This document shows, one piece after another, positions 10,631-28,485 of a stretch of 64,000 bases of DNA. A model generated the notes under the pieces. The model made no database searches, had not been told where the DNA came from, and saw only the letters and a program-made list of their open reading frames with translations. Source of the DNA: a virus (lineage: Duplodnaviria; Heunggongvirae; Uroviricota; Caudoviricetes); the IMG/VR virus record IMGVR_UViG_3300022660_000042; one strand, written 5' to 3'. Within the stretch, counting starts at the first letter, position 1. Every line of letters starts with the position of its first letter. Position numbers and translations under genes: made by a program.

Positions 10631-10645
10631 TGTCTTTTACCTAAA

Positions 10646-11351: not shown

Positions 11352-11365
11352 AGTTAAATTTCCTT

Positions 11366-11695: not shown

Positions 11696-11705
11696 CTCAG
11701 TTTCC

Positions 11706-12347: not shown

Positions 12348-12349
12348 AC

Positions 12350-12526
12350 TTACTTAGTCCAGATAGTAGTCCACTTTCCACCGATAAACTGTTCAATCTT
12401 GACAACCGAACGAAGACGCGGATTCTTATAGGATTCCATGAGTTCTTCAGTATAGCAGTCAGAAGTAAACGGTTCACCATACGGTGTACCAGTTTCGTCA
12501 ACGTGATAACGAGTAATGCGCCACAT
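12350..12526 (-). CDS. small hypothetical protein (58 aa, below the ORF-track cutoff)
   Basis: ATG at 12526..12524 and TAA at 12352..12350 (MWRITRYHVDETGTPYGEPFTSDCYTEELMESYKNPRLRSVVKIEQFIGGKWTTIWTK). It exactly fills the gap between neighbouring genes. Confidence 0.3.
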   Translation of the reverse strand: MWRITRYHVDETGTPYGEPFTSDCYTEELMESYKNPRLRSVVKIEQFIGGKWTTIWTK

Positions 12527-12816
12527 TAGGCCATAACCTCCTGTTGAAGTGTTCGATATAATGCAACCATGTTACGGTCGAGTTCAGAACGCTTGTGCTT
12601 ACCACGAAGAACCTTTTCAGCCATGAAACAAATAGTTGCTTCAGTCTGAGAAAGAGCTACGAGACTTGACACAGCATAACGGGTATGTTCCGGTGAACGG
12701 ATTTCCATACCTTCGAGCTGAACACGGTTACGGGTTTGTTCATTGCCGGTTGTGACCACATAGGCCTTACCGGTCTTTCGATTCATTGCATAATTCATAT
12801 TAATCTCCTCTATCAA
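12526..12816 (-). CDS. hypothetical protein
   Basis: 96-aa ORF. Confidence 0.45.
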   Translation of the reverse strand: MIEEINMNYAMNRKTGKAYVVTTGNEQTRNRVQLEGMEIRSPEHTRYAVSSLVALSQTEATICFMAEKVLRGKHKRSELDRNMVALYRTLQQEVMA

Positions 12817-12889
12817 TTTTATCGATATTACAAATATAGTTAATCGCCTGTAAAAAATTGTTTAACATAGGAAAAAGATTTGAGTTTTC

Positions 12890-13465
12890 TTACAGGGTTG
12901 ATACGGGAAGCAATATGAGCTCATTTTTGAGAGAATACAACTTGGACATCATGTTTTTTACAAATGTATGATGTTTATCCGAATTTTTGTCAAATATCGG
13001 ATCTGTTGATTCTGTATAATTAACTATTCTACAAAGGTCACCGAGAGCCGCGTCAAATTTATTCAGAACTTTGAAAAAGGTAAATAGCTTTTCAAAAGTA
13101 AACCAGCTCTTAAATTGAGAAATACTATCAAACCGCATGGTCTGATATTTATCGATGCCATCCTGGAAAAATTCTTGGTCAAAGTATTCATACATAGCCT
13201 TACGGCAAAGATTTTCCTCACCTTCAGTATAAAAACTTTGAATATAAGTATCGGCTACATAAACTATTCCGACTTTCTTATCATCAGTAACTGTAATTTT
13301 AATATCATGCACCCCGAAAGGTACGACAATACAGGTAGTATATACCTTAATAAGTGGAATCTGCCGTGTAGTATTATGTAGAGCAGTTTCCACTATTTCT
13401 GCTACTTCTTTATCAAATAGACCGTAGTCTAAATATTCAATTCTGTCTTTTTTAGTCATATACAC
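12890..13465 (-). CDS. hypothetical protein
   Basis: 191-aa ORF. Confidence 0.5.
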   Translation of the reverse strand: MYMTKKDRIEYLDYGLFDKEVAEIVETALHNTTRQIPLIKVYTTCIVVPFGVHDIKITVTDDKKVGIVYVADTYIQSFYTEGEENLCRKAMYEYFDQEFFQDGIDKYQTMRFDSISQFKSWFTFEKLFTFFKVLNKFDAALGDLCRIVNYTESTDPIFDKNSDKHHTFVKNMMSKLYSLKNELILLPVSTL

Positions 13466-13498
13466 TTCAAAGTGTAATACATTGCATTACACTATCAT

Positions 13499-13533
13499 AA
13501 TATAGTAAAATGACGGGCTTTTGTAAACCCGCC
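13499..13533 (-). promoter_or_regulatory. sigma70-type promoter TTTACA-17-TATATT with -35 inside hairpin
   Basis: Plus-strand AATATA at 13499..13504, TGTAAA at 13522..13527, hairpin GACGGGCttttgtaaaCCCGCC at 13512..13533. Confidence 0.55.
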
Positions 13534-13541
13534 ATGCTACA

Positions 13542-14084
13542 TTATTTTAGTCTTTCAATTATCTTTTTGACAATTTCGTTATATCCGTCTTCAGTTCCGT
13601 CAGCAGTTTCATATTTCAGATTATTTGAATCCAAAAATTCCAATAATCTTCCATCGATTGCCCTAGCTTCTTCTTCAGTCTGGTTTCGACCGTTAGGATT
13701 ATACTTCTTTGCACGCTTTACGAAAATATTAAAAGTATTTGGATATTTCTTTGCTTCATAAAGGCATACATCCTGATACGGTTTTTCTTCGGTATACATA
13801 GCGCCCATTGCAATAGGACTATCTGTAACAATTACGTCAACCTTTCCGAGAAGTCTCGCAACTTTCAGGCATTGCTTACCGGTTACATATAACTGACAAT
13901 ACTTGAGCGGAAACTGATCATCTTGCCATACACGATCTTTCGCATATTCTGAAACATATTCACAATCAACGCCAGCCATCTTAAGTTTCGCAAAAATATA
14001 AGCAGCTCCTGTCGACTTTCCCGAACCAGGACCCGCATAAAGATTAACCAATAGAGTATTACATGTTCTTTTCATAATTTTCAC
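13542..14084 (-). CDS. P-loop NTPase / nucleotide kinase-like protein
   Basis: Walker A AGPGSGKST near the N-terminus; apparent GTG start. Confidence 0.6.
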   Translation of the reverse strand: MKIMKRTCNTLLVNLYAGPGSGKSTGAAYIFAKLKMAGVDCEYVSEYAKDRVWQDDQFPLKYCQLYVTGKQCLKVARLLGKVDVIVTDSPIAMGAMYTEEKPYQDVCLYEAKKYPNTFNIFVKRAKKYNPNGRNQTEEEARAIDGRLLEFLDSNNLKYETADGTEDGYNEIVKKIIERLK

Positions 14085-14095
14085 CTGTGATTACA

Positions 14096-14101
14096 AATAT
14101 A
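14096..14101 (-). promoter_or_regulatory. -10 element (TATATT on minus strand) for the 13542..14084 gene
   Basis: Plus-strand AATATA at 14096..14101. Part of a bidirectional promoter region shared with the plus-strand CCA gene. Confidence 0.4.
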
Positions 14102-14144
14102 GTAAATTTTTTATTGCCTATTGAAATGTTTATAAAAATCTGTA

Positions 14145-14173
14145 TTTACAAAAACGCTTCAGTTTGCTATATT
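14145..14173 (+). promoter_or_regulatory. sigma70-type promoter for the CCA-adding enzyme gene (TTTACA-17-TATATT)
   Basis: -35 TTTACA at 14145..14150, a 17-nt spacer, -10 TATATT at 14168..14173, and ATG at 14181 only 7 nt downstream, i.e. a leaderless arrangement. Confidence 0.55.
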
Positions 14174-14180
14174 TATTAAC

Positions 14181-15368
14181 ATGAAGATTGATTTATCGAC
14201 TATCAAAAATGACCTCCTCACTTCTGGTATGAAACTCGCTTCCGCTATCGAAAGCAAGGGTTACGAAGCATATCTGGTTGGCGGTTGCGTTCGTGACATG
14301 GTTCGTTGGACTATTGGCCAATGTGGTTTTCCGGATATTCACGATATTGACATCAGCACGAACATGCCTATCGATGAACTTCAGAAAAACTTCAAAACTG
14401 CCAGTAACAATGGCGAAGCTCACGGCACTATTCTGGTTTTCCAGGACGGTGAGCCTTTTGAAGTGACTCAGTTCCGTACCGATGGCGCTTATACCGATGG
14501 TCGTCACCCGGATTCAATCAAGTTCGCCAAGACTTTCAAGGAAGACTGCTTACGCCGCGATTTTACTATCAACGCAATGGGTCTTACCGGTCAGGGTGAA
14601 GTCATTGACTATTACGGTGGTATCGATGATGTTACGAACGGCATTATCCGAGCTGTCGGTAAGGCAGAAGACCGTTTTGCTGAAGATTATCTCAGAATTT
14701 TCCGCGGTGTTCGTTTCATGGTCAACTTCGACTATTCTTTGGCTGATAGTACCTATGAAGCGATGAAGACAACCGTTGATACTTATACTTATAAGATTAA
14801 CTCTCTGTCTTATCCTCGTATTCGTGATGAAATCAGCAAGGTCAAGAATCCTTCTAAGAATCTCGCTTTGTTTTTCACGACACTGTATCGTACCGGTATT
14901 CTGAAATACTTGGTTACTTTCGAAGATGTTGATATTCCGGGTCTGATTGCACGTTTAGAATCTGTAAATCATCTCACTGCGGATAACATCTTTGCGGTTA
15001 TCGCTTTCGGCGAATACGACGTAATGTTACATCGTCTTGCTGCTACTCGAGAAGATTCTCGTTTGCTCAAGTGGTATTATTACATGCTCAAGAAGCTGAA
15101 AGAACCTAACGAAAATACAAGCTGGGACACTATTGTTAAATTCGTCGAAGGTGATTACAAAACTCTCCTCGAACTGTCCAAGATTGTTCCTGCCTGGTAT
15201 AACAGAATTCCTATCGCTTTGAAGCTTAAAAAGGATAAACCCGATTTACATGCTATCTCTGAAAGAGTTCAGAACGAATTTCATGTTAAACCAGGTCCTA
15301 AGTTCGGTGCAGCTGTTAGCTACCTGCTCGAAGAGGCTTACGAAGCAAAAGCAAGGCATCTTCAATAA
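14181..15368 (+). CDS. cca: tRNA nucleotidyltransferase (CCA-adding enzyme) / poly(A) polymerase family
   Basis: Class II nucleotidyltransferase head motif GGCVRD with downstream D.D and RRDFTINA-like signature; 395 aa. It is the only convincing plus-strand gene. Confidence 0.8.
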   Translation: MKIDLSTIKNDLLTSGMKLASAIESKGYEAYLVGGCVRDMVRWTIGQCGFPDIHDIDISTNMPIDELQKNFKTASNNGEAHGTILVFQDGEPFEVTQFRTDGAYTDGRHPDSIKFAKTFKEDCLRRDFTINAMGLTGQGEVIDYYGGIDDVTNGIIRAVGKAEDRFAEDYLRIFRGVRFMVNFDYSLADSTYEAMKTTVDTYTYKINSLSYPRIRDEISKVKNPSKNLALFFTTLYRTGILKYLVTFEDVDIPGLIARLESVNHLTADNIFAVIAFGEYDVMLHRLAATREDSRLLKWYYYMLKKLKEPNENTSWDTIVKFVEGDYKTLLELSKIVPAWYNRIPIALKLKKDKPDLHAISERVQNEFHVKPGPKFGAAVSYLLEEAYEAKARHLQ

Positions 15369-15370
15369 AA

Positions 15371-15400
15371 ATAAACCCGGTTTTAAAAACCGGGTTTTCT
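15371..15400. terminator. bidirectional rho-independent terminator between convergent genes
   Basis: AAACCCGG-ttttaaaaa-CCGGGTTT perfect inverted repeat flanked by A-run and T-run (TCTTTT), between the + gene end (15368) and the - gene end (15402). Confidence 0.75.
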
Positions 15401-15401
15401 T

Positions 15402-15650
15402 TTACTTAGCGGTAGATTCCCAACTGAAAGTAATTGTGTTATTGTCTTCGTCCATTCGAAGGAACTTAAATTCAAATTCAGAGAATTCAATATCCTTACG
15501 TTTCATCGTGGGCGATTTTACTTGAACTTCAAGAACTGGCAAACAGCATTCTCGGAATCGTGTGATTTGACGAGATGCTCCAGGAGTTCCTTCAGCTTCA
15601 TCTACAATAGAACATGCTTTAGTTTTCTTATTAACTCTTACAATAACCAT
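15402..15650 (-). CDS. hypothetical protein
   Basis: 82-aa ORF immediately downstream of the kinase gene. Confidence 0.4.
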   Translation of the reverse strand: MVIVRVNKKTKACSIVDEAEGTPGASRQITRFRECCLPVLEVQVKSPTMKRKDIEFSEFEFKFLRMDEDNNTITFSWESTAK

Positions 15651-16091
15651 TTAGATTCTCCGTTTAATTTTAATTTCGTTTTCCAGATCCTTAAACTGTT
15701 CTTTCATGTATGCAACCTTATCTGGCGGTACATTATGAACATTTTGGAATTCGTTATCCATACGATAAATCGTGACCTCAATGCCACGAGCTGCCGCCTC
15801 TTTCAAATACGGTTTCATATCCTTACGGGTTACAAAAGTATTTGCGACGATAACATACTGAATTCCGTCGTCTAATGCCTTAAACGCTCTTTCATAACAA
15901 TTTTTATGGGCATAATAAATTCGTTTTTGGTCGAAATTATAATTACCCTTATCATCATACCAAAAATCGTCGGCCTCGAAGTGCTTGACTGTATAGCCCT
16001 GCTTTTCGAGGTCGGCTTTAAGCGCTTTGGCATAAGTAGACTTTCCGGATCCAGGGATTCCCCTGATAATTATTAATGTCTGCTTTGCCAT
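15651..16091 (-). CDS. polynucleotide kinase-like P-loop kinase (Pnk kinase domain only)
   Basis: IIRGIPGSGKSTYA Walker A. C-terminal VANTFVTRKDMKPYLKEAAARGIEVTIYRMD...VPPDKV parallels the T4 Pnk kinase domain ([30 protein letters not shown], from memory). No phosphatase domain. Confidence 0.65.
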   Translation of the reverse strand: MAKQTLIIIRGIPGSGKSTYAKALKADLEKQGYTVKHFEADDFWYDDKGNYNFDQKRIYYAHKNCYERAFKALDDGIQYVIVANTFVTRKDMKPYLKEAAARGIEVTIYRMDNEFQNVHNVPPDKVAYMKEQFKDLENEIKIKRRI

Positions 16092-16103
16092 TTTTCTGAT
16101 TTC

Positions 16104-16286
16104 CTATTCTGTGAACCGATATATTATCGCAACCAGTAGAACATTCAGTAAATAGAATTTAAAGAATATTCCTAGGATTGTACGACAACATAAGTCTTTG
16201 CTTGTGGTTCCTATTGAAGATATGACTAAAAAGAAACATTCCAATAGGAACAACGCCGTTCCATATTCAAATATAGTTAAAATCAT
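16104..16286 (-). CDS. small hydrophobic protein
   Basis: 60-aa ORF with two hydrophobic stretches, filling the gap between the kinase and ligase genes. Confidence 0.3.
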   Translation of the reverse strand: MILTIFEYGTALFLLECFFLVISSIGTTSKDLCCRTILGIFFKFYLLNVLLVAIIYRFTE

Positions 16287-17551
16287 TCTTCAATAGTCCT
16301 CTGCACGTTAGAAGGTTCCAATTTTTTGTGAACTGCACGCTTAACAGATGCATAATTAGTGATATTACGATTAATGCACTTGATAGCCTGCATAATAGCC
16401 CCAATATCGCTCTTATAGTGCTCCAGAGCGTATTCGTAGCGAGAACGCTGGTCTTCGCAAGCCTTCATGGTTTCGCGAGCCTCAGCGAGAACTTCTTCAG
16501 TACGTTCCTTAACCTGAATGCGGACACTTTCGGCGTATGCACGTAAATCAGGGAATTCTTCAGGAATATACAGAACTTCATCATCTACAGGCTTGTAACC
16601 GTTAGTCTTGTCGACATGGGCATGGAAGAAATCCTTTTCACAGTCATACGCTACCCAGATATTCCACTCGCTGAGGCATTCGAATATCTTTGCGAGCTGG
16701 CACCATTCATCGGATTTAACCTTGACCTTGAATCCATATTCCGGGAAAGTTACAACATAACCTTCCTGAGACGAAGGAAGCTTGGTCGCAGTATTTCGAG
16801 CGTCATTGAAATTATCGTATTCATAGATTTCTGCCATCTTGATTTGCCAAGTATTGGCATAAGCGCTAAGTCCAATAATATGCTCTTCAGCACCAGTTTC
16901 ATTGTCGATAACTGCCAAAAGAACAAGACCTTCAAAATCATAACGAATCGGGTGAAAATCTTCATTTGAAACAATTTCAAACAAATAAGTTTTCTTCGGA
17001 TTCAAAGTTGCCGCATGAGGACCGCCGATATGCTGGTCAAACCAACGCTGTCCCCAAATTGCCTGGTCAGAATCGAAAGATCCACCGGTCTTCAACTGCC
17101 AATGCTTAAGATAAGGATTCCAGAATACAATACCTAAAGAACCGTCCACCTTTTCCATAGTCAGGAAACGAATAGACTTGAGAATCTTTCGAATATCAAT
17201 TTTCTTCTGGTACTTCATTACCTTTTTTGCAAGGTCGGTAAGTTCGCCAGTTTCGTTGTTAATCAATTCGCCATAGTTGAAGAATTTATCAAAAGGACGT
17301 GCTACAATTTCGCCGGTTTCAGAATCGAAAACAATACCACGAGCATTGAGAGTAATTTCATCCCAATCCGATGAATATACTGTTTCACGAGTATACTTGA
17401 AACCAACCAGCTTACCATACCAGTGAGCTGAAATACGTCCCTTCTTTGCTGCCTTCAAATACTTACGGAGTCTGTGCTTGTTCCGCAGTTTCCGGAGTAG
17501 GTTCTTCAGCCAAGTCATCATTTTTCTTTTCCACCTTTTTCTTAGGCTCAT
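16283..17551 (-). CDS. Rnl1-type RNA ligase (T4 RnlA-like tRNA repair ligase); start uncertain
   Basis: KxDG nucleotidyltransferase motif MEKVDGSL. YSSDWDEITLNARGIVF / RPFDKFFNYGE parallels T4 Rnl1 YSDWLLPDALECRGIMF / RPMEKFFNLNE. The first ~30 codons overlap the 17463..17738 ORF in another frame and look like out-of-frame translation. Confidence 0.8.
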   Translation of the reverse strand: MSLRKRWKRKMMTWLKNLLRKLRNKHRLRKYLKAAKKGRISAHWYGKLVGFKYTRETVYSSDWDEITLNARGIVFDSETGEIVARPFDKFFNYGELINNETGELTDLAKKVMKYQKKIDIRKILKSIRFLTMEKVDGSLGIVFWNPYLKHWQLKTGGSFDSDQAIWGQRWFDQHIGGPHAATLNPKKTYLFEIVSNEDFHPIRYDFEGLVLLAVIDNETGAEEHIIGLSAYANTWQIKMAEIYEYDNFNDARNTATKLPSSQEGYVVTFPEYGFKVKVKSDEWCQLAKIFECLSEWNIWVAYDCEKDFFHAHVDKTNGYKPVDDEVLYIPEEFPDLRAYAESVRIQVKERTEEVLAEARETMKACEDQRSRYEYALEHYKSDIGAIMQAIKCINRNITNYASVKRAVHKKLEPSNVQRTIEE

Positions 17552-17738
17552 ACTTATGAGTCTTATCGAGTTCTACCGTTTCAATAGTACATCCAGCTTC
17601 ATACTTTTCACGAATGAAACTTTCAAGTTCTCCGCGAACTTCAGTTTCCGTTTCGCCATAACGCTTAAAAACAAGCGGTCCTGGAATACCTTCAATTAAA
17701 ACCAAGCACTTATAACGTTGTTTCATTATTTTTCCCAC
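17463..17738 (-). CDS. hypothetical acidic protein
   Basis: 91-aa ORF whose 3' end overlaps the annotated 5' end of the RNA ligase ORF. Confidence 0.4.
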   Translation of the reverse strand: MGKIMKQRYKCLVLIEGIPGPLVFKRYGETETEVRGELESFIREKYEAGCTIETVELDKTHKYEPKKKVEKKNDDLAEEPTPETAEQAQTP

Positions 17739-18391
17739 ATGGCATCGGTTTTGACCAGTTCATCAATGCTTACTGGACGATACCATGCTTCCCAGCTAAC
17801 ATTGTTTTCGACCATTTTGCCGTTATGGTTATCGACAACGCTAGTCTTGTTGAATTCATGCGTATGACCATGAACGAGATAGTCAATAGGCTTACCTTCC
17901 GCAAGATACTGGTTCAATGCGGTCGGGTCACCAGTTGTACCGTCATGTTCATTAATCGTTTCATCATAATTATAATGCTGCAACAGATAGTTCTTACCAT
18001 TATACGTAAGGTAAATGTTATCCTTTACCATAGTAATGTTCGGAAACATAGTTTCCTTGACCGGATAGAGCTTCTTGAACAGAGCATAGTCATGATTACC
18101 ACGAATCATATACATGTGCTTGAAATTCAACTTGTTCGTGTAATAATCGCCAAACACTTCAAGCAACTTGCTACCGGGAGTACCGAGAGTAAAATCACCG
18201 AGGAAAATGACAATATCATTCGGAGAAACAACAGAATTCCATTGCTTCACAATATCTTCATTCATTTCCTCGACGGTTACGTACTTTCGTGTACGGTCAA
18301 AATGATCCTCGTAACTCGTGCAGAGTTTACGATGATTAACGTGCAAGTCACTGACAATAAAAATCTTTTCGTTGTGTAATTCTAGTTCCAT
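17726..18391 (-). CDS. calcineurin-like metallophosphoesterase
   Basis: Motifs SDLHV (DxH), GDF, GNHD and GHTH in canonical order. Start moved to ATG at 18391 (MELELHNEK), 6 nt downstream of a TATATT -10. Confidence 0.75.
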   Translation of the reverse strand: MELELHNEKIFIVSDLHVNHRKLCTSYEDHFDRTRKYVTVEEMNEDIVKQWNSVVSPNDIVIFLGDFTLGTPGSKLLEVFGDYYTNKLNFKHMYMIRGNHDYALFKKLYPVKETMFPNITMVKDNIYLTYNGKNYLLQHYNYDETINEHDGTTGDPTALNQYLAEGKPIDYLVHGHTHEFNKTSVVDNHNGKMVENNVSWEAWYRPVSIDELVKTDAMWEK

Positions 18392-18397
18392 AATGCA

Positions 18398-18432
18398 AAT
18401 ATAATAAAAATAAGGCATTTTGTAAATGCCTT
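18398..18432 (-). promoter_or_regulatory. promoter (TTTACA-17-TATATT) with -35 inside a terminator-like hairpin
   Basis: Plus-strand AATATA at 18398..18403; hairpin AAGGCATTttgtAAATGCCTT at 18412..18432 contains the -35 (plus-strand TGTAAA). Confidence 0.5.
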
Positions 18433-18600
18433 ATTTTTTGTCACCAGATTTTGGAAACCGGTAACAGAGCAATACTAATAAAATTGTTTCAAGAATTACA
18501 TAGATTATCGAAAACTGAAGCTGTAACAATGAACAGAAAATGAACATTGTAAAGAACACTGATAAAAACGTGTTAATAATGAATAATAACAGTTTTTCCA

Positions 18601-18807
18601 TTATTCCTCAACTTCTTCTACCAAATCCTTGATTTTTACAATTTTAGGTTTTTGACCATTCAATTCAAACGCATGTGTATTGATATAGTCAGTACACTGT
18701 GCGGAAGAATCGAAAGTATATGCTGAGCGCGGATTTCTGGTGGTTCCCCAACCATTCCAATATTCTGAATCAATCTTAAGAACGTAATAATATTTAAGCA
18801 TAGCCAT
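18601..18807 (-). CDS. hypothetical protein
   Basis: 68-aa ORF. Confidence 0.35.
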   Translation of the reverse strand: MAMLKYYYVLKIDSEYWNGWGTTRNPRSAYTFDSSAQCTDYINTHAFELNGQKPKIVKIKDLVEEVEE

Positions 18808-18819
18808 CTTTATATATGA

Positions 18820-19938
18820 TTACTTCTGCAGATAATCTTGAATAATCTTTTCATGATGGAAACCCATCTTCGGAAGATTACCGACACTGAACCATGCTGC
18901 ATCCTTCGCATCGTCGCCGGCCTTAGCCATCTTCTTTTCCTTACCAGTAACCCTTACAGATACTGCTGTATCGATAATACGCAAGCGTGGGTCAAACATA
19001 TGGCTATAGGTCTTAATCTGTTCGAACTTTTCAACTGGGAGGTTCAGAGACGTTTCTTCGCGGAATTCACGCTGTGCTGCATGTTCCAAAGAAGCATCAG
19101 CCTTTTCAGGAAGTCCGGTTTCCTTATTGATATAATCAACCGGATTAAAGAATCCACCAGGAGTACAGAAGTAATTCATATACGGTGGTTTCCTACGGCG
19201 AATCAACAGAACTTCATCACCGGAAATACCGACAATATCAACCGTGTTTGCAAACTTTCCCCAACCCTGCTTCTTATAGTTTTCAATCCACTGCTTTTCA
19301 AGTTCAGTATAGTTGGTCGGATTCTGGTCATAAAGACTGTTTGTCTTAATCGGATTATCACGGTCATCCGTAAGTTCGCCTTCTTTTCGGATATATTCAA
19401 ACACTGGCTTGCTAATCAGTGTCTTAACATCCTTATAGTGGCATTCCGGATTACGGTAGAAAATTTTACGAGCTTCGCTACTGGAAATACCTTCAGTCTT
19501 AATACCCATGAGATAAGTACAATCATAACCGTACTTCGATTTCAATGCACCATCATTATCATCACGAGGAATAACCAAGAACTTATAGTTATTCAAAAGC
19601 TGATTACCGAACTTCCACTTTCCGTTAACCAAAGAATACCATTCGTCTTCGCCGATAACAATAGTAATATCCTTATCCTTGGTACCGAACTTATGGGAAA
19701 TGAATTCATAAGTCCTGTTATTCTGAACGAGAATCGTAGGATTCAACTTTCGTGCAGTCATTGCGACCTTAACCATCGCGACACGTTCATCTACCGGAGT
19801 CTTATAATTCTTTTCGTCCGTATTGGAAACAAGAACATAAAGTTCATCGCCCTTACGAACCTTTTTGCTCACTGCCTTAATAATAGCTTCATGAGCGTGA
19901 GTAATCGGATCAAATGCACCACCAATCAAATACTTCAT
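18820..19938 (-). CDS. bifunctional NMN adenylyltransferase / Nudix ADP-ribose pyrophosphatase (NadM-Nudix, NatV-like)
   Basis: N-terminal GGAFDPITHAHEAIIK ((H/T)xGH nucleotidyltransferase motif). C-terminal Nudix box GGFFNPVDYINKETGLPEKADASLEHAAQREFREETSL. Confidence 0.8.
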   Translation of the reverse strand: MKYLIGGAFDPITHAHEAIIKAVSKKVRKGDELYVLVSNTDEKNYKTPVDERVAMVKVAMTARKLNPTILVQNNRTYEFISHKFGTKDKDITIVIGEDEWYSLVNGKWKFGNQLLNNYKFLVIPRDDNDGALKSKYGYDCTYLMGIKTEGISSSEARKIFYRNPECHYKDVKTLISKPVFEYIRKEGELTDDRDNPIKTNSLYDQNPTNYTELEKQWIENYKKQGWGKFANTVDIVGISGDEVLLIRRRKPPYMNYFCTPGGFFNPVDYINKETGLPEKADASLEHAAQREFREETSLNLPVEKFEQIKTYSHMFDPRLRIIDTAVSVRVTGKEKKMAKAGDDAKDAAWFSVGNLPKMGFHHEKIIQDYLQK

Positions 19939-19940
19939 AA

Positions 19941-20333
19941 TTATCTCCTAATATTTCCACAAGATGTATGAGCGTCACCCATAATATCGCCCTTGACTGT
20001 AATGTTTCCTGCATGGGTTTCAACATCACCTGAAACATCACCACCAATTTCGATATTACCTGCTGCACTTTCAACATTACCCATGACGTCGCCAGAAACT
20101 GTAATGTTGTTTCCCTTACATACCTTATCTACGTCACCATAGACCGTAATGTTAATAACTTTATCTTTTACAGTAAAAGACTGATTACCAACAATAACAG
20201 TTTCACCCGAAATCTTAACAGAATCTGCGCAAATAGGTTCTTCAACCTTTTTACCGTTAATTTCAATACTATCTGTGAGGCATAAACCTTTGAGAATATC
20301 TTCAGCCATAGTTTTCCTTATGTTTTTATACAA
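19941..20333 (-). CDS. bactofilin-like protein (beta-helical repeat)
   Basis: Repeated VxGxVxGNIxxGGDVSGDVETHAGNITVKGDIMGD pattern typical of the bactofilin (DUF583) domain. Confidence 0.55.
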   Translation of the reverse strand: MYKNIRKTMAEDILKGLCLTDSIEINGKKVEEPICADSVKISGETVIVGNQSFTVKDKVINITVYGDVDKVCKGNNITVSGDVMGNVESAAGNIEIGGDVSGDVETHAGNITVKGDIMGDAHTSCGNIRR

Positions 20334-20365
20334 TATAGCAAAATTAAAGGGCTTTGTAAGCCCTT
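20332..20365 (-). promoter_or_regulatory. promoter/-10 (TATATT) plus hairpin AAGGGCTTtgtAAGCCCTT
   Basis: Plus-strand AATATA at 20332..20337 and hairpin at 20347..20365, between two minus-strand genes. Confidence 0.45.
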
Positions 20366-20369
20366 ATAA

Positions 20370-20651
20370 TTATTTAATCGTATATGTTTGACCTTCGTAC
20401 TCTACAACACGTTCTTTCTTAGGATTTTTAACTTCGACTGCGCACATCTTAAGAGAAAAACCACTTGTAGTTTCAGCTGTTACTTTTCGTCCAGCGTCAT
20501 CATCTCGATATGCAAAGCAAGGACCCATACCAGTAATATCCGCTTTTTCATGGAGGTCGCTAAGAATCATTATAGGAATCCCGAAAAAAAACAATCCCAA
20601 AATTAAAAACAAAACTGGAACTGTCCTATCTAATTTCCACATTATATCCAT
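20370..20651 (-). CDS. hypothetical membrane-associated protein
   Basis: 93-aa ORF with one hydrophobic helix. Confidence 0.4.
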   Translation of the reverse strand: MDIMWKLDRTVPVLFLILGLFFFGIPIMILSDLHEKADITGMGPCFAYRDDDAGRKVTAETTSGFSLKMCAVEVKNPKKERVVEYEGQTYTIK

Positions 20652-21061
20652 TATTTACCACCTTTAATGAATGTTTCATATTTTGAAAGGGTATTACTGT
20701 CAATTTCCGGTTTTTTATGTGTGTGCACCAACCGATACAAAAAACAAGCAAATGTATACGGTGACTTTAAAATTGTTAAAATTAGTGCAAACAAATTATG
20801 TACTATTGCTATACCTGTAATAATTTCAGCTATTGCCAAACCTAGAAGTGCAGCACCGCTATTAATTACAGACCATCCAAGATAGCATGCATACGAATGT
20901 TCATGCAAATAACAATTTTGTGCCGCACAAACAATTGTCTGGTTTTCATTGTACATTACAAAACAGGTTATAATGGATGCAATAATTATTGTTGGAAGCC
21001 AGTCAAAAAGAAACAGATTCAAGCTATCTGAATCGTTATCTGTCATATATTTCCAAGTCAT
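20651..21061 (-). CDS. membrane protein
   Basis: 136 aa with multiple hydrophobic segments. Confidence 0.45.
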   Translation of the reverse strand: MTWKYMTDNDSDSLNLFLFDWLPTIIIASIITCFVMYNENQTIVCAAQNCYLHEHSYACYLGWSVINSGAALLGLAIAEIITGIAIVHNLFALILTILKSPYTFACFLYRLVHTHKKPEIDSNTLSKYETFIKGGK

Positions 21062-21065
21062 TCAA

Positions 21066-21407
21066 TTACCCCTTATGCTTAAAATATGTTCTGAACAACC
21101 ATGGCGCTTTCTTAACCTTTTCGGCAAATTCTTCCATAGCTTTATATGCAAAAATTGCTCGATTATCGTCGTCAATCTTTACAGTATCTCCGTAATACAG
21201 TTCATTAAACAATGTGACAAAATCATCGGAATCCAAATACTTTCGAGTAGTATTATGTTTTTCATGAATTTCGCCGAGAGTTTCGCGAACATGAACTGAA
21301 CTGTTCTTGATAACCTGATTTGCCGCAAGATACTGGGCAAAATAAGCACCGATACCGATACCGATACCAATACTAACAATTACAAGTATTACAATAAAGA
21401 CTCCCAT
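21066..21407 (-). CDS. membrane protein
   Basis: N-terminal TM helix with a GIGIGIG motif. Confidence 0.45.
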   Translation of the reverse strand: MGVFIVILVIVSIGIGIGIGAYFAQYLAANQVIKNSSVHVRETLGEIHEKHNTTRKYLDSDDFVTLFNELYYGDTVKIDDDNRAIFAYKAMEEFAEKVKKAPWLFRTYFKHKG

Positions 21408-21409
21408 AA

Positions 21410-21964
21410 TTACCCCTTCAGAATACCGGCGTGACGTGCCGCAGTAATTGTGGTCAAATCTGTTCCTTGTCCATCAGCAAAAGTAAGCTTCGTTGCGGAA
21501 AAAGAAACAGTATAATACGGATCCTGATTTGGCCTGCTGTTAGTCAACTCCAAAGCGCTGAGTCCACAAACCTTCACATTTTCATACTTGTACTGGCCCA
21601 AAGGCATATGCGGATTATGATTATAAATTTCAAGGGTAATCTTTGCGACTTCGTTTCCATTCTTCAACAAATCAACCCAGAATGCGTAATCAACAATAGA
21701 TGTACGCTTAAAGACGAGCTTAAAACTAAGGTTAGAAGAATCCGTAAATTCACGCATTGCATCAGATTCTCCCGGGTGACTTGCAGTAATTGCTGAACCT
21801 TGACTGGAATTAAGATGGTCGCTAAAATGACCACCCCATGCAGCAATCAAAGCATTATTGCTTGTAAAGCGAGATTCTGCATTTATATTGAAATCAAACT
21901 GTGCCTTTAAACCGTAACCGTCGGGATTTGCAACTTCTTTTTCAGGATAGACTTGATTGTTCAT
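21410..21964 (-). CDS. hypothetical protein (beta-rich; possibly Hcp/tail-tube-like fold)
   Basis: 184 aa, alternating beta-strand-like pattern. Any Hcp resemblance is weak. Confidence 0.4.
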   Translation of the reverse strand: MNNQVYPEKEVANPDGYGLKAQFDFNINAESRFTSNNALIAAWGGHFSDHLNSSQGSAITASHPGESDAMREFTDSSNLSFKLVFKRTSIVDYAFWVDLLKNGNEVAKITLEIYNHNPHMPLGQYKYENVKVCGLSALELTNSRPNQDPYYTVSFSATKLTFADGQGTDLTTITAARHAGILKG

Positions 21965-21988
21965 ATTGGTTCCTTTTGTTTATGCATA

Positions 21989-22017
21989 TAATATAGTAAA
22001 AATATTCATATTTGTCA
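21989..22017 (-). promoter_or_regulatory. sigma70-type promoter TTGACA-17-TATATT
   Basis: Plus-strand AATATA at 21989..21994, TGTCAA at 22012..22017, exact 17-nt spacer; followed upstream by hairpin AGGCTGACttgcGTTAACCT at 22030..22051. Confidence 0.6.
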
Positions 22018-22082
22018 ACCTAAAAAATAAAAGGCTGACTTGCGTTAACCTTTTACCCTCACACATCCAATATTCTTTTTTC

Positions 22083-24011
22083 TTACTTCTTTGTTTCGGA
22101 GAACAAATCAATAAGAGTGTCCTTGCTCAACTGAGTCAAATCAAGTCCAACTTCAGAATCCTTATCGGAATCGTCAACAAATGTAAAGCCTGCTTTTTCA
22201 AGAATCGGCTTCAGGTTGACGAACGAACGACACTTATTCTTGAGGTTTTCAATATACACGTCTGCATATTCATGATTTGGCACACGTCCACCACCTTGAG
22301 TAAGGTCCATGAGGAATACCTTATTGTCTACAATAAGTGCACACTGCTTTTCGCGTTCATTATCAACTGGAATGATAAATTCAGCGAGAACATTGTTCGG
22401 ATCCACCTTTACATCCACACGCTGGCTATAATAAGCATCTTTCTTAAGCTTCTTCTCTTGACGAGCAACGAAGAACTTAAACTGAGACTTAGGAGAACCA
22501 TTGTACTGGTTTACCGATACCTTGCCATCAGGACACTTACAGTCAATGTAGAACAATTCTGTTGCTTCCGGACGAGCTGTAGTCATATCACCCGAGTAAA
22601 TGATCTTATTCTCATGGTCCTTGTAACTTGCGTTCCAACCATAAGTACCTCCATTAATGTCATACATATGAAGGTCAAAATCCTGGGTTCCCCATTCTCC
22701 ACGCCAATAGATACCAACAACGTTGTGGTCGTCGGACATATCAACGGAAGTGCCAAACGGATAATTACCGATGAAGTTCTTTTCAGAAGTCGGCATTGTC
22801 AGATTGACATGCTGAGGATAACGAACAGTACATGCCTTATCCTTGATAGACTTGACCAACGAATCTTCAAGAAGATTGTAGACAACCATCAAGTAGGAAT
22901 TCAATTCCTGATTAGGCACCGGAGCATCCTTACGAACCCACATCTTGCCGTTACGAATTACATACATCTTTCCGCTAGCATTCTGGAGCTTAGCGAGAAT
23001 ACCCTGCATGAGCGTGACCTTCTTGAAATTGGTGATTTCACCCTTTGCAAGACGTTCACGAACTTCGTCCAGCTTCTTGTGTTCAGAAAGTACAGTTTCC
23101 CAGAAACCTGCAGTAAACGGCTTATGGTCAGTAACAGCCAAACGACGGATATGGTTAATAACCGAGGAGTTTGTCTTCTGTCCAACAACAACGGCCTTAA
23201 GCTTTGCTGCGGCCTTTCTGAAAGCTTCATTCTTGAAAACTGCCGGCTTACCGTCAACCTTTTGGTTCTTGAACGCTAAGAATAACGGCTTGAAACGATA
23301 GAAAATCGAAGCGAGAGCGTGTAGCTGCTCATCCGACAACTTCGTAAAGTCGACAGTTTCTGCCTTTTCCTTAATGGCCTTGATAGTCTTTCGGTCCTTG
23401 ATAAGCATGGCGCTGCCAGTTGCCTTAAAGACGAAATAACGTAACATGTTGAACGGGTCCTTGCCGTAGATACCTGTTGCATCCATCAATGCTATGGAAG
23501 CTTCCTTATTCTTGATGGAATCGACGTCGAGTCCATAAGTATTGAAACGCTTATCTTGCGTAATGAAGTTCACAAGGACATTAATGGTTTCAGTTTCAAG
23601 GGCAATCCCGGACTGGAGCATCTTTACACAGCGTGTATAAATTTCCTCGTCAGTCGCAGGCATAATAACCTTGAATGAATTGTACGGAATTTCTACGTCC
23701 GGAGCGTTGTTTGGAATATACGCATCGCCCGTATAATTTGTGCCATAAGTAGAGGCATAATGAAGAAGTTGATCTACCAACAGTTCAAAACGCGTCTTGG
23801 ACGTAATGTCAGACCACTTAGCATAAAACGTCTTATTGTAATTGGTCTTAGCTTCAGCATTCACCCAGTCAAGGGCAAGCTTCGAGCAACAGTCGGGATG
23901 AATAATCCAACCATACTTTGCTGATTCTGCGTTAACCTCTTCAAAAGAGCGCTTAGAGTTACCTTCTGCCTTAGGCATGACATTGAACATTGTAATCAAC
24001 TTAAGATTCAT
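22083..24011 (-). CDS. large hypothetical protein (642 aa)
   Basis: Long uninterrupted ORF with RBS AGGAAAAATT-ATG and an upstream promoter at 24103..24131. No motif I could assign. Confidence 0.6.
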   Translation of the reverse strand: MNLKLITMFNVMPKAEGNSKRSFEEVNAESAKYGWIIHPDCCSKLALDWVNAEAKTNYNKTFYAKWSDITSKTRFELLVDQLLHYASTYGTNYTGDAYIPNNAPDVEIPYNSFKVIMPATDEEIYTRCVKMLQSGIALETETINVLVNFITQDKRFNTYGLDVDSIKNKEASIALMDATGIYGKDPFNMLRYFVFKATGSAMLIKDRKTIKAIKEKAETVDFTKLSDEQLHALASIFYRFKPLFLAFKNQKVDGKPAVFKNEAFRKAAAKLKAVVVGQKTNSSVINHIRRLAVTDHKPFTAGFWETVLSEHKKLDEVRERLAKGEITNFKKVTLMQGILAKLQNASGKMYVIRNGKMWVRKDAPVPNQELNSYLMVVYNLLEDSLVKSIKDKACTVRYPQHVNLTMPTSEKNFIGNYPFGTSVDMSDDHNVVGIYWRGEWGTQDFDLHMYDINGGTYGWNASYKDHENKIIYSGDMTTARPEATELFYIDCKCPDGKVSVNQYNGSPKSQFKFFVARQEKKLKKDAYYSQRVDVKVDPNNVLAEFIIPVDNEREKQCALIVDNKVFLMDLTQGGGRVPNHEYADVYIENLKNKCRSFVNLKPILEKAGFTFVDDSDKDSEVGLDLTQLSKDTLIDLFSETKK

Positions 24012-24102
24012 AATTTTTCCTCATTAAAAGTGTTAAAGCGAGAAGTAAGTATTTTGCCTAAATTATAATGATATAGGAACATCCTTTGCTTTAACGGTGT
24101 TA

Positions 24103-24131
24103 AATATAGTAAATTGTTTGTGTTTTGTAAA
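24103..24131 (-). promoter_or_regulatory. sigma70-type promoter TTTACA-17-TATATT for the 22083..24011 gene
   Basis: Plus-strand AATATA at 24103..24108 and TGTAAA at 24126..24131, 17-nt spacer. Confidence 0.55.
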
Positions 24132-24139
24132 CCCTATTT

Positions 24140-24307
24140 TTAAAGGTTTTTTAATGCTTTTTTCCAAGCCTTTACTTTCTTCTTGGATTCTTTGCTCAGT
24201 TTTAATCCGAAAATATCCATTAGTGCATTGGCAGTATCAACACCTGCCAAACGACTTTCGAGTTCTTTCTTCTTTAACGAATTTTCCGTTTCCAATGAAC
24301 TTCCCAT
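24140..24307 (-). CDS. small basic hypothetical protein (55 aa, possibly leaderless)
   Basis: ATG at 24307 lies 8 nt downstream of the -10 of the promoter at 24316..24344. The track ORF start at 24325 would sit inside the promoter. Confidence 0.35.
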   Translation of the reverse strand: MGSSLETENSLKKKELESRLAGVDTANALMDIFGLKLSKESKKKVKAWKKALKNL

Positions 24308-24315
24308 ACATGTAT

Positions 24316-24344
24316 AATATAGCAAGTGTATTTTATTTTGTAAA
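24316..24344 (-). promoter_or_regulatory. sigma70-type promoter TTTACA-17-TATATT
   Basis: Plus-strand AATATA at 24316..24321 and TGTAAA at 24339..24344, 17-nt spacer. Confidence 0.55.
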
Positions 24345-24356
24345 CCCCTAAATATA

Positions 24357-24388
24357 AAAAAGTAGAGCCGGTTGACTCTACTTTTAAA
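24357..24388. terminator. rho-independent terminator hairpin
   Basis: AAAAGTAGAG-ccggttga-CTCTACTTTT inverted repeat with flanking A- and T-runs, downstream of the patatin gene. Confidence 0.65.
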
Positions 24389-24402
24389 TTAAAACCCGAA
24401 TA

Positions 24403-25272
24403 TTATCGATTTTTTACAAAATCTAAAATATCCTTTTTAACTGATTCGTAGTAGTCATCCCAGATTTTCATAACTAAATTAATAGTTTTATCTGATACAT
24501 CATCCATTTTTATCTTTTTTGTATAATTCGGAGATGCATTGAAAACATACTTATCGCCGAGAATGGCTTGTGCTTCATAAATTGGTGATTTTGAACTTCT
24601 TGCTACCCAATCTCCAATCATATATTCTGCCCATCCTAACAATGTTTTATTTCCATGTTCTGTATTTGGTGTATTCATTCCAGTATTAAAATTTAAAAGT
24701 TTAAGATTTCGATTGCCTTGTTTAAATTGACCAGCAATAACTATATCGGCAGGGTTATTTGCCCAACAGCCACCGTCCATATAAGAGTTTCCATCTTTTT
24801 CTATAACATCAAAATATGTAGGTGCTGCTGTTGATGTAAGTACAGCAAATGCCTTTGTTGTATCTTTATCACCTAAATCCCACACTTTTTCTACAGAAGC
24901 ACCATTCATAAATGTTGTTGTAATATAGATAGGTTTTTTCCAATCACTAACTTTACCTTTAAGTTTTTCTTCTAAAATTTTTTTAAGATTTGTATTATCA
25001 TATGTTGGACACGTTGGTTTAAGTCGTTTATACCAGGAATTTTTTGTAAAAATTTTCTTTAAATTATCTTGGTATAATTTAAATATATCATGTGCACTCA
25101 TACCTTCATTCATACATGCAGCAACTATTGAACCCGTAGAAGTACCAGTATATGCTGATACATAATCACCTAATTTTTTACCTAGATCTTGTTCCAATCT
25201 GCACATAAATGCTAAAGGTCCCATAGCCAAGGCTCCACCACCTTCAATACTTAAACACAATTGTTTGCCCAT
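24403..25272 (-). CDS. patatin-like phospholipase
   Basis: Oxyanion-hole GGGALAMG (GGGxxG) near the N-terminus and nucleophile elbow GTSTGS (GxSxG); DGG near the end of the domain. Confidence 0.8.
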   Translation of the reverse strand: MGKQLCLSIEGGGALAMGPLAFMCRLEQDLGKKLGDYVSAYTGTSTGSIVAACMNEGMSAHDIFKLYQDNLKKIFTKNSWYKRLKPTCPTYDNTNLKKILEEKLKGKVSDWKKPIYITTTFMNGASVEKVWDLGDKDTTKAFAVLTSTAAPTYFDVIEKDGNSYMDGGCWANNPADIVIAGQFKQGNRNLKLLNFNTGMNTPNTEHGNKTLLGWAEYMIGDWVARSSKSPIYEAQAILGDKYVFNASPNYTKKIKMDDVSDKTINLVMKIWDDYYESVKKDILDFVKNR

Positions 25273-25303
25273 AAAATTCTCCTAATATAATTTTATATTA
25301 TAT

Positions 25304-25822
25304 TTATATAATTATATTATTCCGAATTTTTTCTATAAGTATATCCAACTCTTTTCTTTTTAAAATAATAACATTATTTTTTATCATGCATTCTTGTTTT
25401 TCCAGTTGTAATTCTTTTGTAAATGGATTTATTAATTGATTATTATCATTAAAGAAAAAATCTCCTTTAACTTCATAAAATTTACCATTTATAATAAAAT
25501 CTGGCTTATATTTATGTTCTTGTTCTTCTTTAATATAAGTAAACGTAATTTTTGGATGATATTCAAACACATTCTTACTGGACTGTAATGCTTCATATAA
25601 TTCATATTCCCAGTGAGAATCGAAATATATATCATTATAATAAAAACCATATACTGTATGTGATTGTGTATTTGGATTTTGACCGGGATTTTTATAACCA
25701 GTTTTTTCATAATATGTTTGCTGACATTTAGCAAATGATTCAGGATTCGACCAATTATGGTAATACCCTGTTTTTCTAAAATATTCTTCAGAACGTTGTT
25801 TTAAATGTTCTGGATTTTTCAT
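25304..25822 (-). CDS. repeat-containing protein (tandem ~23-aa YFxKTGYYHNWSNPES repeats); same frame as upstream ORF across a single TAA
   Basis: Repeats continue upstream of the annotated ATG through 25823..25927 with no stop until the TAA at 25930..25928. Confidence 0.5.
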   Translation of the reverse strand: MKNPEHLKQRSEEYFRKTGYYHNWSNPESFAKCQQTYYEKTGYKNPGQNPNTQSHTVYGFYYNDIYFDSHWEYELYEALQSSKNVFEYHPKITFTYIKEEQEHKYKPDFIINGKFYEVKGDFFFNDNNQLINPFTKELQLEKQECMIKNNVIILKRKELDILIEKIRNNIII

Positions 25823-25927
25823 ATTATGAGTATAACCAGTTTCTTTAAAATATGTATCTATACATTTTTGTCGTGAATCTGGATTAGACCAATTATGATA
25901 ATATCCGGTTCTTTGAAAATATGTATT

Positions 25928-26260
25928 TTATGTTCGAAGCCTAACATCTTGTTTCCATTCATCAGTATGAGAATGCCATGTTTCTGATGCAGATAATTTT
26001 GCTTCTTCACTTTGTCTTGCACACAATGTACAACAATAACGTCTATAACCGTATGTAAAATTTATAAATTTTGTTTCTTTACCACAATTTTTACAAATAT
26101 TTTCATCAGGTTCTTTTAAATATTTATCATAATATTCACGAGAATGTATATTGTGCTTAACTAATAAATGTGTAGAAATTCCCAATGATTTTATTTGTTT
26201 ATGACAGAATTTACATTCTATTATATCATGTCTTACTATATTAAATTTACTTATACTCAT
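25928..26260 (-). CDS. zinc-ribbon protein
   Basis: Two CxxC pairs (CKFCHK...CKNCGK) plus CCTLCARQ; 110 aa. Confidence 0.5.
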   Translation of the reverse strand: MSISKFNIVRHDIIECKFCHKQIKSLGISTHLLVKHNIHSREYYDKYLKEPDENICKNCGKETKFINFTYGYRRYCCTLCARQSEEAKLSASETWHSHTDEWKQDVRLRT

Positions 26261-26403
26261 TAAAAAACTCCTACCTAATTCTTGCCCAATTAGATAGGAG
26301 ATAATACGATAACGTATTTTTCAAATTTTTCTACTATTAAAAGGGCAAGTTTTAATAATACTTATATAGTATTTATAATATTTGCCCGTTTTATTTTGTA
26401 ATA

Positions 26404-26883
26404 TTACGCTAAATTTTTCAATAATGCGGTTTCAATCTCGAAATCACTCATGGCCTTTTTATATTCAAAACTATCTTCATGTCCAGAAAGTCTCGAATAT
26501 GGAACTCCCATAGAATCCCAGATTTTATGCTGCATAACTATCCAGCCATACGCAGCATAAAAATTTTCCCATCTATTAAGAAATTCAATCAGCTCATTTA
26601 GCTTAGATTTTGTCAGCCATTCCAACATTTTAAAGACATTATCTTTATAGTCAAAAATCATTATTGAACATCTGTCTTTAATGGGCATAAGAGTACATGC
26701 GACCATAATTTCAAACTTTTCATCATCTTCGTACCAACTGAATTCAACCTCAAATCGATTATCCTTATCGCGAAGACAAATACTATCATGGGTTTTAGAA
26801 GTATTTACCCTCATGTAATAATCATTCGGTTTAATCCGAAGAATATAGTTTTGAAAATGTTGGAATGTATATGCTTCAGACAT
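26404..26883 (-). CDS. hypothetical protein
   Basis: 159-aa ORF. Confidence 0.5.
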   Translation of the reverse strand: MSEAYTFQHFQNYILRIKPNDYYMRVNTSKTHDSICLRDKDNRFEVEFSWYEDDEKFEIMVACTLMPIKDRCSIMIFDYKDNVFKMLEWLTKSKLNELIEFLNRWENFYAAYGWIVMQHKIWDSMGVPYSRLSGHEDSFEYKKAMSDFEIETALLKNLA

Positions 26884-26970
26884 TAATTCTTACCTAAAAG
26901 CTTATTAAAAGCATTTACAAGCTTACTGATTTCACCTTCATCGCTTGTAGGTTCATAATCAATACTTGTA

Positions 26971-27330
26971 TCATAAACCACGCGACGCTGAACTGGGGGC
27001 TTTCTTCATTTTTTCCTTATGTTCATTCATAAGTTTTTCAGCAAGTTCATATGACGGAATATAAGAACCAACATCCCATGAAGCATCTTTTGAACAAATA
27101 TGAGGTTTAGATTCTTCTTTCCAAATATGACTATCACGGTATCTTAAATATCGTTCCATATTATAGGTCAAGCGAAACCAATTCTTCGAACCGCTATTTA
27201 TCTTACGATATTCAACAACAAACCATGACGGGTCTCTGTTTACAATACTTGGAGCAACATCAAAATCGAACGTCGGATATTCATATGTACCGAGTTCTAT
27301 AATACGATATTCATAAAGCGATTTTTCCAT
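26971..27330 (-). CDS. hypothetical protein
   Basis: 119-aa ORF. Confidence 0.45.
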   Translation of the reverse strand: MEKSLYEYRIIELGTYEYPTFDFDVAPSIVNRDPSWFVVEYRKINSGSKNWFRLTYNMERYLRYRDSHIWKEESKPHICSKDASWDVGSYIPSYELAEKLMNEHKEKMKKAPSSASRGL

Positions 27331-28484: not shown

Positions 28485-28485
28485 C

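Follow-up and report, generated by a model that had tools for sequence, protein, structure and literature searches.

A NadD-Nudix fusion of a very large metagenomic phage as a candidate step in deamidated nicotinamide salvage

What would a phage do with an enzyme that joins a pyridine-mononucleotide adenylyltransferase to a Nudix domain? The question is raised by a 64,000-nucleotide stretch of Caudoviricetes DNA (IMG/VR record IMGVR_UViG_3300022660_000042), which we refer to as the window. On its minus strand, a gene at 18820..19938 (ATG start; 372 amino acids (aa) plus stop) encodes such a fusion, and the same window carries genes of a ligase that consumes nicotinamide adenine dinucleotide (NAD+). 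An initial annotation had labelled the fusion as NadM/NatV-type, the nicotinamide mononucleotide (NMN) adenylyltransferase-Nudix enzyme of vibriophage KVP40. Our analysis assigns the head of the protein to the NadD family instead. Judging from sequence, structure prediction and gene partners, we consider it likely that the fusion would act as NadD in a deamidated route of nicotinamide salvage encoded by the phage, with its tail hydrolysing ADP-ribose, sustaining NAD+ during infection.

A NadD-type head on a NadM-type Nudix tail

The open reading frame contains both strings quoted in the initial annotation, GGAFDPITHAHEAI in the head (aa 6-19) and REFREETSL in the tail (aa 290-298), and its basic reading of a pyridine-mononucleotide adenylyltransferase joined to a Nudix domain of ADP-ribose type holds by Pfam, by profile and by structure. 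Two Pfam families exceed their gathering cut-offs, CTP_transf_like over aa 4-158 (3e-12) and NUDIX over aa 230-368 (8e-12), and the AlphaFold2 model of the fusion reaches a pLDDT of 90.2 and a pTM of 0.85. An identical fusion gene is called on the ENA contig k141_2224112. Homologues of the same architecture form at least 120 clusters at the 90% identity level, with 45-96% identity to the window protein and on contigs of up to 463 kb; taken with the domain E-values, these clusters put the fusion far beyond chance. The catalytic motifs of both halves are invariant across this large metagenomic family. An exhaustive search with the head alone among 1.84 billion proteins returned just 188 representatives with E<=1e-3, of which ~35 (at 50% identity) are fusions with the same tail. 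Many of the matches are stand-alone proteins with a GGAFDPxTxAH motif, and canonical NadDs with HxGH lie further out.

The head (19369..19938, minus strand, aa 1-190) belongs to the NadD/NMNAT family. Its best NCBIfam match is TIGR00482 (7.5e-20), which it covers from model position 1 to 191 of 194. A profile built from 27 homologues matches nicotinate mononucleotide (NaMN) adenylyltransferase of P. falciparum (5llt, 2e-11) and S. aureus NadD (2h29, 4e-11) over the full length when searched against the PDB, as well as B. anthracis NadD, B. subtilis NadD and human NMNAT1; NadM heads gave no match in this search. The fold agrees with the profiles: in a Foldseek search with the AlphaFold2 model, S. 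aureus NadD 2h29 aligned with a TM-score of 0.76 and a root-mean-square deviation (rmsd) of 3.0 A over 194 columns, and dozens of further NadD chains aligned with TM-scores of ~0.7 (range 0.70-0.76). Both nucleotide-binding motifs of the NadD/NMNAT family, (H/T)xxH and the SxTxxR type, are present. The first reads GGAFDPIT13HAH16, with TxxH replacing HxGH, and is followed by a VIGEDEW...GKW108 segment and by ISSS152-154EAR157; the strings FDPITxAHE and ISSSEARK are common to the head and 5llt. Among the 27 homologues H16, W108, S153 and R157 are invariant, while T13, S152 and S154 are nearly so. By hidden Markov model, profile, fold and motifs, the head is thus NadD-type.

A reading in which the fusion has nothing to do with NAD, its head being another HIGH-motif nucleotidyltransferase (pantetheine-phosphate adenylyltransferase (PPAT), FAD synthetase or a cytidylyltransferase) and its tail a housekeeping Nudix enzyme such as an 8-oxo-dGTPase, appears highly improbable. 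The N-terminal FDPITxxH does resemble the PPAT motif, and PPAT structures match aa 4-65 and TIGR01510 aa 4-75 (1.2e-6), but the structural matches end at about residue 65 whereas NadD matches span aa 4-190. The head therefore resolves neither into a PPAT, which accounts for its first ~60 residues, nor into a glycerol-3-phosphate cytidylyltransferase. Public names of family members are divided between 'nicotinate (nicotinamide) nucleotide adenylyltransferase' and '8-oxo-dGTP diphosphatase', the latter given to several members by the Joint Genome Institute (JGI). No MutT model of NCBIfam matches the window protein, however, and the conserved linkage to pncB, pncA and nadE described below is specific to NAD metabolism.

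For the NadM/NatV label we used as controls two genuine phage NadM-Nudix proteins, those of Klebsiella phage Miro and of cyanophage B23 (gp46, with an annotated NAMPT three genes away), searched with the same model library. In both, the PRK05379 match runs from one end to the other (1e-78 and 1e-105; residues 2-352 in Miro and 3-340 in B23), their heads match NadM/archaeal-type models (TIGR01527, PRK13793, PRK01153), and neither matches TIGR00482. Six members of the window's fusion family show the opposite pattern. In the window fusion the PRK05379 models cover aa ~185-370 alone and no NadM-head model matches, so that the label can be kept for the tail and has to be given up for the head. Pairwise comparison by blastp agrees with this division, with an identity to the corresponding control domains of 20-22% for the head (E 2e-3, 3e-4) and of 26-31% for the tail (E 8e-7, 6e-19; the closer being B23 gp46). 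On these identities, the protein is a mosaic of a NadD-like head and a NadM-type Nudix tail.

The tail (18823..19341, minus strand, aa 200-372) consists of a helical lead-in and a Nudix fold of the NadM-Nudix/NrtR ADP-ribose-binding clade. Tail and lead-in align with the ADP-ribose pyrophosphatase domains of the Synechocystis and Francisella NadM-Nudix enzymes (2qjo, 2qjt): as a single sequence the tail matches 2qjo at 6.7e-9, and with the family profile the values are 6e-15 for 2fml and 8e-14 for 2qjo. Measured against the Nudix box GX5EX7REUXEEXGU, the REFREE core is invariant and the final G is replaced by S, and the metal-binding core R290-E291-F-R-E294-E295 is intact. R290, E291, E294 and E295 do not vary even in homologues with as little as 20% identity, and the same holds for G261-G262, D316 and H362; R318 and F360 are fixed in the 27-member family and almost so in the wider homologue set. 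SHxFDPRxR and FHH motifs are also present. By homology, the tail is an ADP-ribose pyrophosphatase-type Nudix domain.

This clade also contains sensors, and the tail could in principle act like NrtR, binding ADP-ribose as it accumulates from NAD+ breakdown and turning on the head, rather than hydrolysing it. Members of the family match NF050029, a model of NrtR (with E-values as low as 3e-21, in P0314), and the tail resembles the ADP-ribose-bound NrtR domain 3gz8 (TM-score 0.71) as well as AraR. We nevertheless regard a sensor as quite unlikely: NrtR Nudix domains typically have degenerate boxes, against which stands the invariant metal-binding core of the tail; the fusion has no DNA-binding domain; and the related NadM-Nudix domains 2qjo and 2qjt were deposited as ADP-ribose pyrophosphatases.

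Partner genes of a deamidated salvage route

The source of the window is a very large phage known from metagenomes alone. Contig k141_2224112 (ENA ERZ27248314, 224,850 bp) is 100% identical to the window over the two overlaps compared, 1..10442 and 8820..29938; scaffolds of 322-428 kb are ~98-99% identical to segment 1..10442, and relatives in IMG/VR lie on contigs of up to 424 kb. No DNA-level relative was found among 50,697 GenBank phages, and a protein-level search of GenBank phages with the fusion gave distant NadM-Nudix matches only. Nearly all genes of the window lie on the minus strand; domain and profile searches place among them a T4-type UvsX, a family B polymerase, RNase H and ClpP, together with an Rnl1 RNA ligase, a CCA-adding enzyme, a patatin-like protein, flotillin and LemA. 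The part of this genome that we inspected amounts to 74 kb, made up of the window and a 9.8-kb extension beyond its left edge that is supplied by locus L005 on the identical contig.

By tblastn (E<=10), the window contains no homologue of NAMPT, PncB, NadE or PncA. The lack of NAMPT in the window, as stated in the initial annotation, is thus borne out. Its 642-aa neighbour (22083..24011, minus strand), described there as unlike NAMPT, indeed has no match in Pfam, NCBIfam or PHROGs; this protein is strongly conserved, being 73% identical in a lineage whose fusion is only 57% identical. NAMPT is also missing from the 9.8-kb extension and from the 10 kb on either side of the fusion in ~20 related loci. 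The expectation of a NAMPT partner is not supported by these searches; the salvage genes found just outside the window are of another kind. A 199-aa PncA-like protein of the isochorismatase family is encoded 6.2 kb beyond the left edge on k141_2224112; its best solved match is the nicotinamidase 2wt9, and its match to the PncA model is weak. PncB (409 aa) follows 7.2 kb beyond the edge (L005:17604-18833) and passes the curated cut-offs of NF003704 (400 vs 379 bits) and TIGR01514 (332 vs 269.55).

Relatives extend this set to NadE and bring the genes closer together. In most of the lineages examined, no more than 10 kb separate a PncA-like gene from the fusion, and in a lineage with a 56%-identical fusion (L014) the fusion, a PncA-like gene and nadE are adjacent, in this order. 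The tightest arrangement is found with the 31-34%-identity homologues (L024-L028, on contigs of up to 259 kb), where four genes abut on one strand: pncB (8720-10000), the fusion (10001-11131), pncA-like (11360-11926) and nadE (11926-12711). PncB and NadE of these clusters pass curated cut-offs. In further lineages, matches to the fusion and to NadE lie on contigs of identical length (139,340, 175,633 and 5,345 bp). The missing NAMPT, the PncA-like and PncB partners and the tight pncB-fusion-pncA-nadE cluster of distant relatives make the NadD step the most likely position of the fusion. With pncB upstream and nadE downstream in relatives, its head most likely prefers NaMN as substrate.

The resulting route would begin with nicotinamide, which the PncA-like protein would convert to nicotinate. 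PncB would join nicotinate to phosphoribosyl pyrophosphate (PRPP), giving NaMN, and the NadD-type head would then combine NaMN (most likely, with NMN possible too) and ATP into nicotinate adenine dinucleotide (NaAD) and pyrophosphate. NadE, which some lineages encode themselves and which in this one presumably comes from the host, would complete the synthesis from NaAD to NAD+. The Nudix tail, in turn, would most likely split ADP-ribose into AMP and ribose-5-phosphate, of which the latter can be remade into PRPP. In this way the two domains could jointly handle both products of NAD+ cleavage, with nicotinamide led back to NAD+ and ADP-ribose broken down.

Several observations weigh against this assignment. 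The TIGR00482 score of the head, 71.8 bits, falls below the trusted cut-off of 112.45 (family members score 55-81 bits), which makes it a divergent relative of NadD rather than an equivalog. Its TxAH motif is the form found in dual-specificity eukaryotic NMNATs, and for this reason use of NMN by the head is possible as well. In the tail, the Nudix box departs from the canonical form at its first Glu, with A in its place and a near-invariant D281 adjoining, and the loop of the box after GGFF carries an insert of 12-14 aa (aa 266-279 of the window protein) that is specific to the window's sub-branch and occurs neither in distant fusions nor in the NadM-Nudix controls. The genes for PncB and the PncA-like protein lie ~25 kb from the fusion in this genome, not in one operon. 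NadE was not found in the 74 kb examined, and none of its best 120 homologues, reaching down to ~55% identity, lies on the 412-428 kb scaffolds of this lineage. The pncB gene itself varies among genomes that are 98-99% identical: the allele of L007 (17214-18497) has just 35% identity to the L005 allele and looks like that of the 57%-identity lineage, while in L008, a 98.8%-identical sibling, pncB is reduced to fragments (17549-17927). These differences suggest gene replacement and loss at the pncB site, and the salvage route is therefore not strictly maintained.

The same partners bear on the KVP40 comparison, in which a NatV/NadM-Nudix enzyme of the NARP2 kind would adenylate NMN delivered by a NAMPT whose gene lies in another part of the genome. 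The fusion has the two-domain layout of such enzymes, PHROG 395 ('cytidyltransferase') aligns over both domains, the tail is clearly NadM-Nudix-like and the best two-domain matches in Foldseek are NadM-Nudix structures, although superposition on them gives an rmsd of ~16 A, a value made uninformative by the different domain orientation. There is room for a NAMPT in the ~350 kb of the genome outside the inspected part, and NMN released by the phage's own ligase would be an obvious substrate, provided that the head takes it. Set against this are the match of the head to NadD models where PRK05379 misses it, the reverse behaviour of the Miro and B23 controls, the lower identity of the head than of the tail to those controls, and partners that are PncA, PncB and NadE and never NAMPT. 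We therefore judge an NMN-dependent NARP2-like enzyme unlikely and retain NadD-type salvage as the better account of the fusion.

Two other genes of the window were considered as NAD-related, of which the first was rejected and the second found no support. The AAA_28 protein at 13542..14084 does not qualify as a NadR-type nicotinamide riboside kinase (no NCBIfam match, weak RecA P-loop matches in the PDB, 'thymidylate kinase' in PHROGs). The major facilitator superfamily (MFS) transporter at 45739..46890 (minus strand), a candidate NiaP-type niacin permease, is instead of the SfMCT/oxalate-formate monocarboxylate type (SfMCT in NCBIfam, 2e-60, below cut-off; PDB 6g9x, 9e-13), and nicotinate uptake by it would be speculation. 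Directly after nadE in L014 (12510-13598) we further observed a 362-aa protein in which a nucleoside 2-deoxyribosyltransferase-like domain (PF15891) is joined to a metallophosphoesterase domain, and which may be another enzyme that processes nucleotides or NAD derivatives.

NAD+ demand, RNA repair and the wider neighbourhood

The initial annotation had placed an NAD-dependent ligase beside the fusion, and this co-residence is confirmed, but the gene is not the compact LigA it was taken for. The open frame at 27330..28484 (384 aa from a TTG; on the identical contig the gene is called from the ATG at 28448, hence 27330..28448 and 372 aa, minus strand) contains KLDG and TRGDG and comprises domain Ia (PF22745, a weak 1.4e-4), the adenylation domain (PF01653, 5e-34) and the OB fold (PF03120, 1e-20). 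It corresponds to positions 1-382 of the 652 in TIGR00575 (1.6e-83), that is, to the N-terminal half of a split LigA. The C-terminal half, with helix-hairpin-helix and BRCT families, is a separate 271-aa gene, also on the minus strand, of which the window contains the first 41 codons (1..124), the remainder lying beyond its left edge. Its full extent is L005:10319-11134, which maps to window position 124 down to -691, and it matches TIGR00575 from 387 to 652 (2.9e-38). All parts of LigA are accordingly present on two genes ~27 kb apart, without a single protein that runs from Ia to BRCT. In the 57%-identity lineage, too, the C-terminal half has a gene of its own (L001:12036-12851; by tblastn this homologue aligns to window 2..124), and the split therefore looks functional rather than like a pseudogene.

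The candidate route would probably serve to maintain the NAD+ supply in infected cells, both for the phage's own NAD-dependent ligase and in the face of host defences that deplete NAD+. A link of the candidate salvage genes to such defences, as proposed in the initial annotation, is plausible. Directly downstream of the fusion we observed an RNA-repair island (14181..18418) that consists of a metallophosphoesterase (17726..18418), an Rnl1-type RNA ligase (16283..17521), a KTI12/AAA_33 P-loop kinase with a polynucleotide-kinase PHROG match (15651..16091) and, on the strand opposite to the rest, a CCA-adding tRNA nucleotidyltransferase (14181..15368). Six further lineages (L014, L016, L017, L022, L023, L029) also have an Rnl1 homologue no more than 10 kb from the fusion.

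The same biochemistry may be purely metabolic, boosting NAD+ for LigA and other NAD-consuming enzymes of the phage and having no part in counter-defence, and we hold this for a possible explanation without giving it preference. It is the one offered for NAD-jumbo phages by Li et al. 2024 (PMC11662467), who report LigA in 90 of 174; the phage studied here encodes an NAD-dependent ligase too, and NARP2 raises NAD+ even without a defence being present. Yet the enzymes act on exactly the two products that defence NADases generate, and the fusion stands beside RNA-repair genes of a counter-defence type (the Rnl1 ligase, P-loop kinase, phosphoesterase and CCA-adding enzyme). NARP1, 2 and 3 all proved to be counter-defences, and the turnover of pncB among near-identical genomes looks like that of an accessory trait in an arms race. 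These points are not decisive. With the site of the gene beside the RNA-repair island and the choice of substrates, we lean towards counter-defence.

Other features of the window stand apart from NAD metabolism. A flotillin/SPFH protein (31179..32819, minus strand, 546 aa) and a LemA-family protein (33599..34156, minus strand, 185 aa) lie close together, a membrane-scaffold pair that is unusual in a phage; a flotillin homologue is also found near the fusion in L013. A patch of low GC content at 24001..26000 (0.287 vs ~0.37 elsewhere) contains a patatin-like phospholipase (24403..25272) and an open reading frame with endonuclease and homing-endonuclease PHROG matches (25304..25822), and may be a recent insertion. 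Towards the left edge (6881..12347) is a host-like cluster of proteostasis- and translation-type genes, with an eIF-1A-like OB protein (6881..7171), ClpP (8239..8982), a weakly matched SpoVG-like protein (9730..10173) and two tandem Cpn10/GroES paralogues (11022..11351 and 11366..11695).

Relation to known phage NAD+ systems

The fusion resembles several known systems and coincides with none of them. With the NadM-Nudix enzymes (PRK05379; 2qjo, 2qjt; KVP40 NatV, which is the Nmnat of NARP2) it shares the order of head, helical linker and Nudix domain, a homologous tail and linker, and probably the overall job, in which NAD+ is rebuilt while ADP-ribose is removed. It differs from them in a head of the NadD/NMNAT rather than the NadM/archaeal NMNAT family, in partners that are PncA, PncB and NadE instead of NAMPT, in a predicted domain arrangement that does not superpose on theirs, and in the extra loop of the Nudix box. 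To NadD (TIGR00482; 5llt, 2h29 and the B. anthracis enzyme) the homology extends over the full length of the head and to its fold, and the place between PncB and NadE is likewise that of NadD in the Preiss-Handler pathway; here the differences are the score below the equivalog cut-off, TxAH in place of the bacterial HxGH, and the Nudix domain, which canonical NadD lacks.

At the level of the genome, the closest parallel is the gut 'NAD-jumbo phages' of Li et al. (Microbiome 2024, PMC11662467), which carry salvage or Preiss-Handler genes, including a pncB-nadD-nadE cluster. They too are very large and encode pncB, a nadD-type gene, in some cases nadE, and an NAD-dependent ligase, and the four-gene clusters of L024-L028 resemble the published arrangement (pncB-nadD-nadE of Kuafu_71), whereas the genes of the window's lineage are dispersed and nadE was not found in its 74 kb. 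As Preiss-Handler genes and LigA in gut jumbo phages are reported there, the general idea of the initial annotation is already in print. That survey treats nadD as an ordinary NadD, equates KVP40's enzyme with nadD, and nowhere mentions a Nudix fusion (0 occurrences). The phage enzymes named by Iyer et al. 2022 are limited to NadV, NadM and NadR, and according to these authors every NadM phage has NadV as well. Our literature searches turned up neither a published account of a NadD-Nudix fusion nor an experiment that sets a phage Preiss-Handler route against an NAD-depleting defence.

Three phage routes of NAD+ reconstitution have been named, NARP1 (Adps and Namat) and NARP2 (Nampt and Nmnat), defined by Osterman et al. 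and dating from 2024, and NARP3 (PnuC and NadR) from 2026. They use amidated intermediates or nicotinamide riboside. The candidate route has in common with them that NAD+ would be rebuilt from nicotinamide (and ADP-ribose), and it would differ in passing through nicotinate, NaMN and NaAD with none of the NARP1-3 enzymes. We tentatively raise the possibility, short of favouring it, that the fusion, the PncA-like protein and PncB (with NadE where present) form a fourth such route, by way of deamidated intermediates. The Nudix tail would then clear or recycle the ADP-ribose released by TIR-, SIR2- or SEFIR-type defence NADases, and the route would be a main escape of huge metagenomic, probably gut, phages from NAD-depletion immunity.

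The assignment corrects the labelling of a family whose members are publicly named '8-oxo-dGTP diphosphatase' or plain NMNAT and are taken for ordinary nadD in the jumbo-phage survey, and which tools that look for NAMPT together with NadM would miss. The practical gain is modest: a defined set of three or four genes, in which the preference of the head for NaMN or NMN decides how the pathway closes. For the phages that carry it, the fusion family provides a concrete and widespread candidate for nicotinate-based rebuilding of NAD+.

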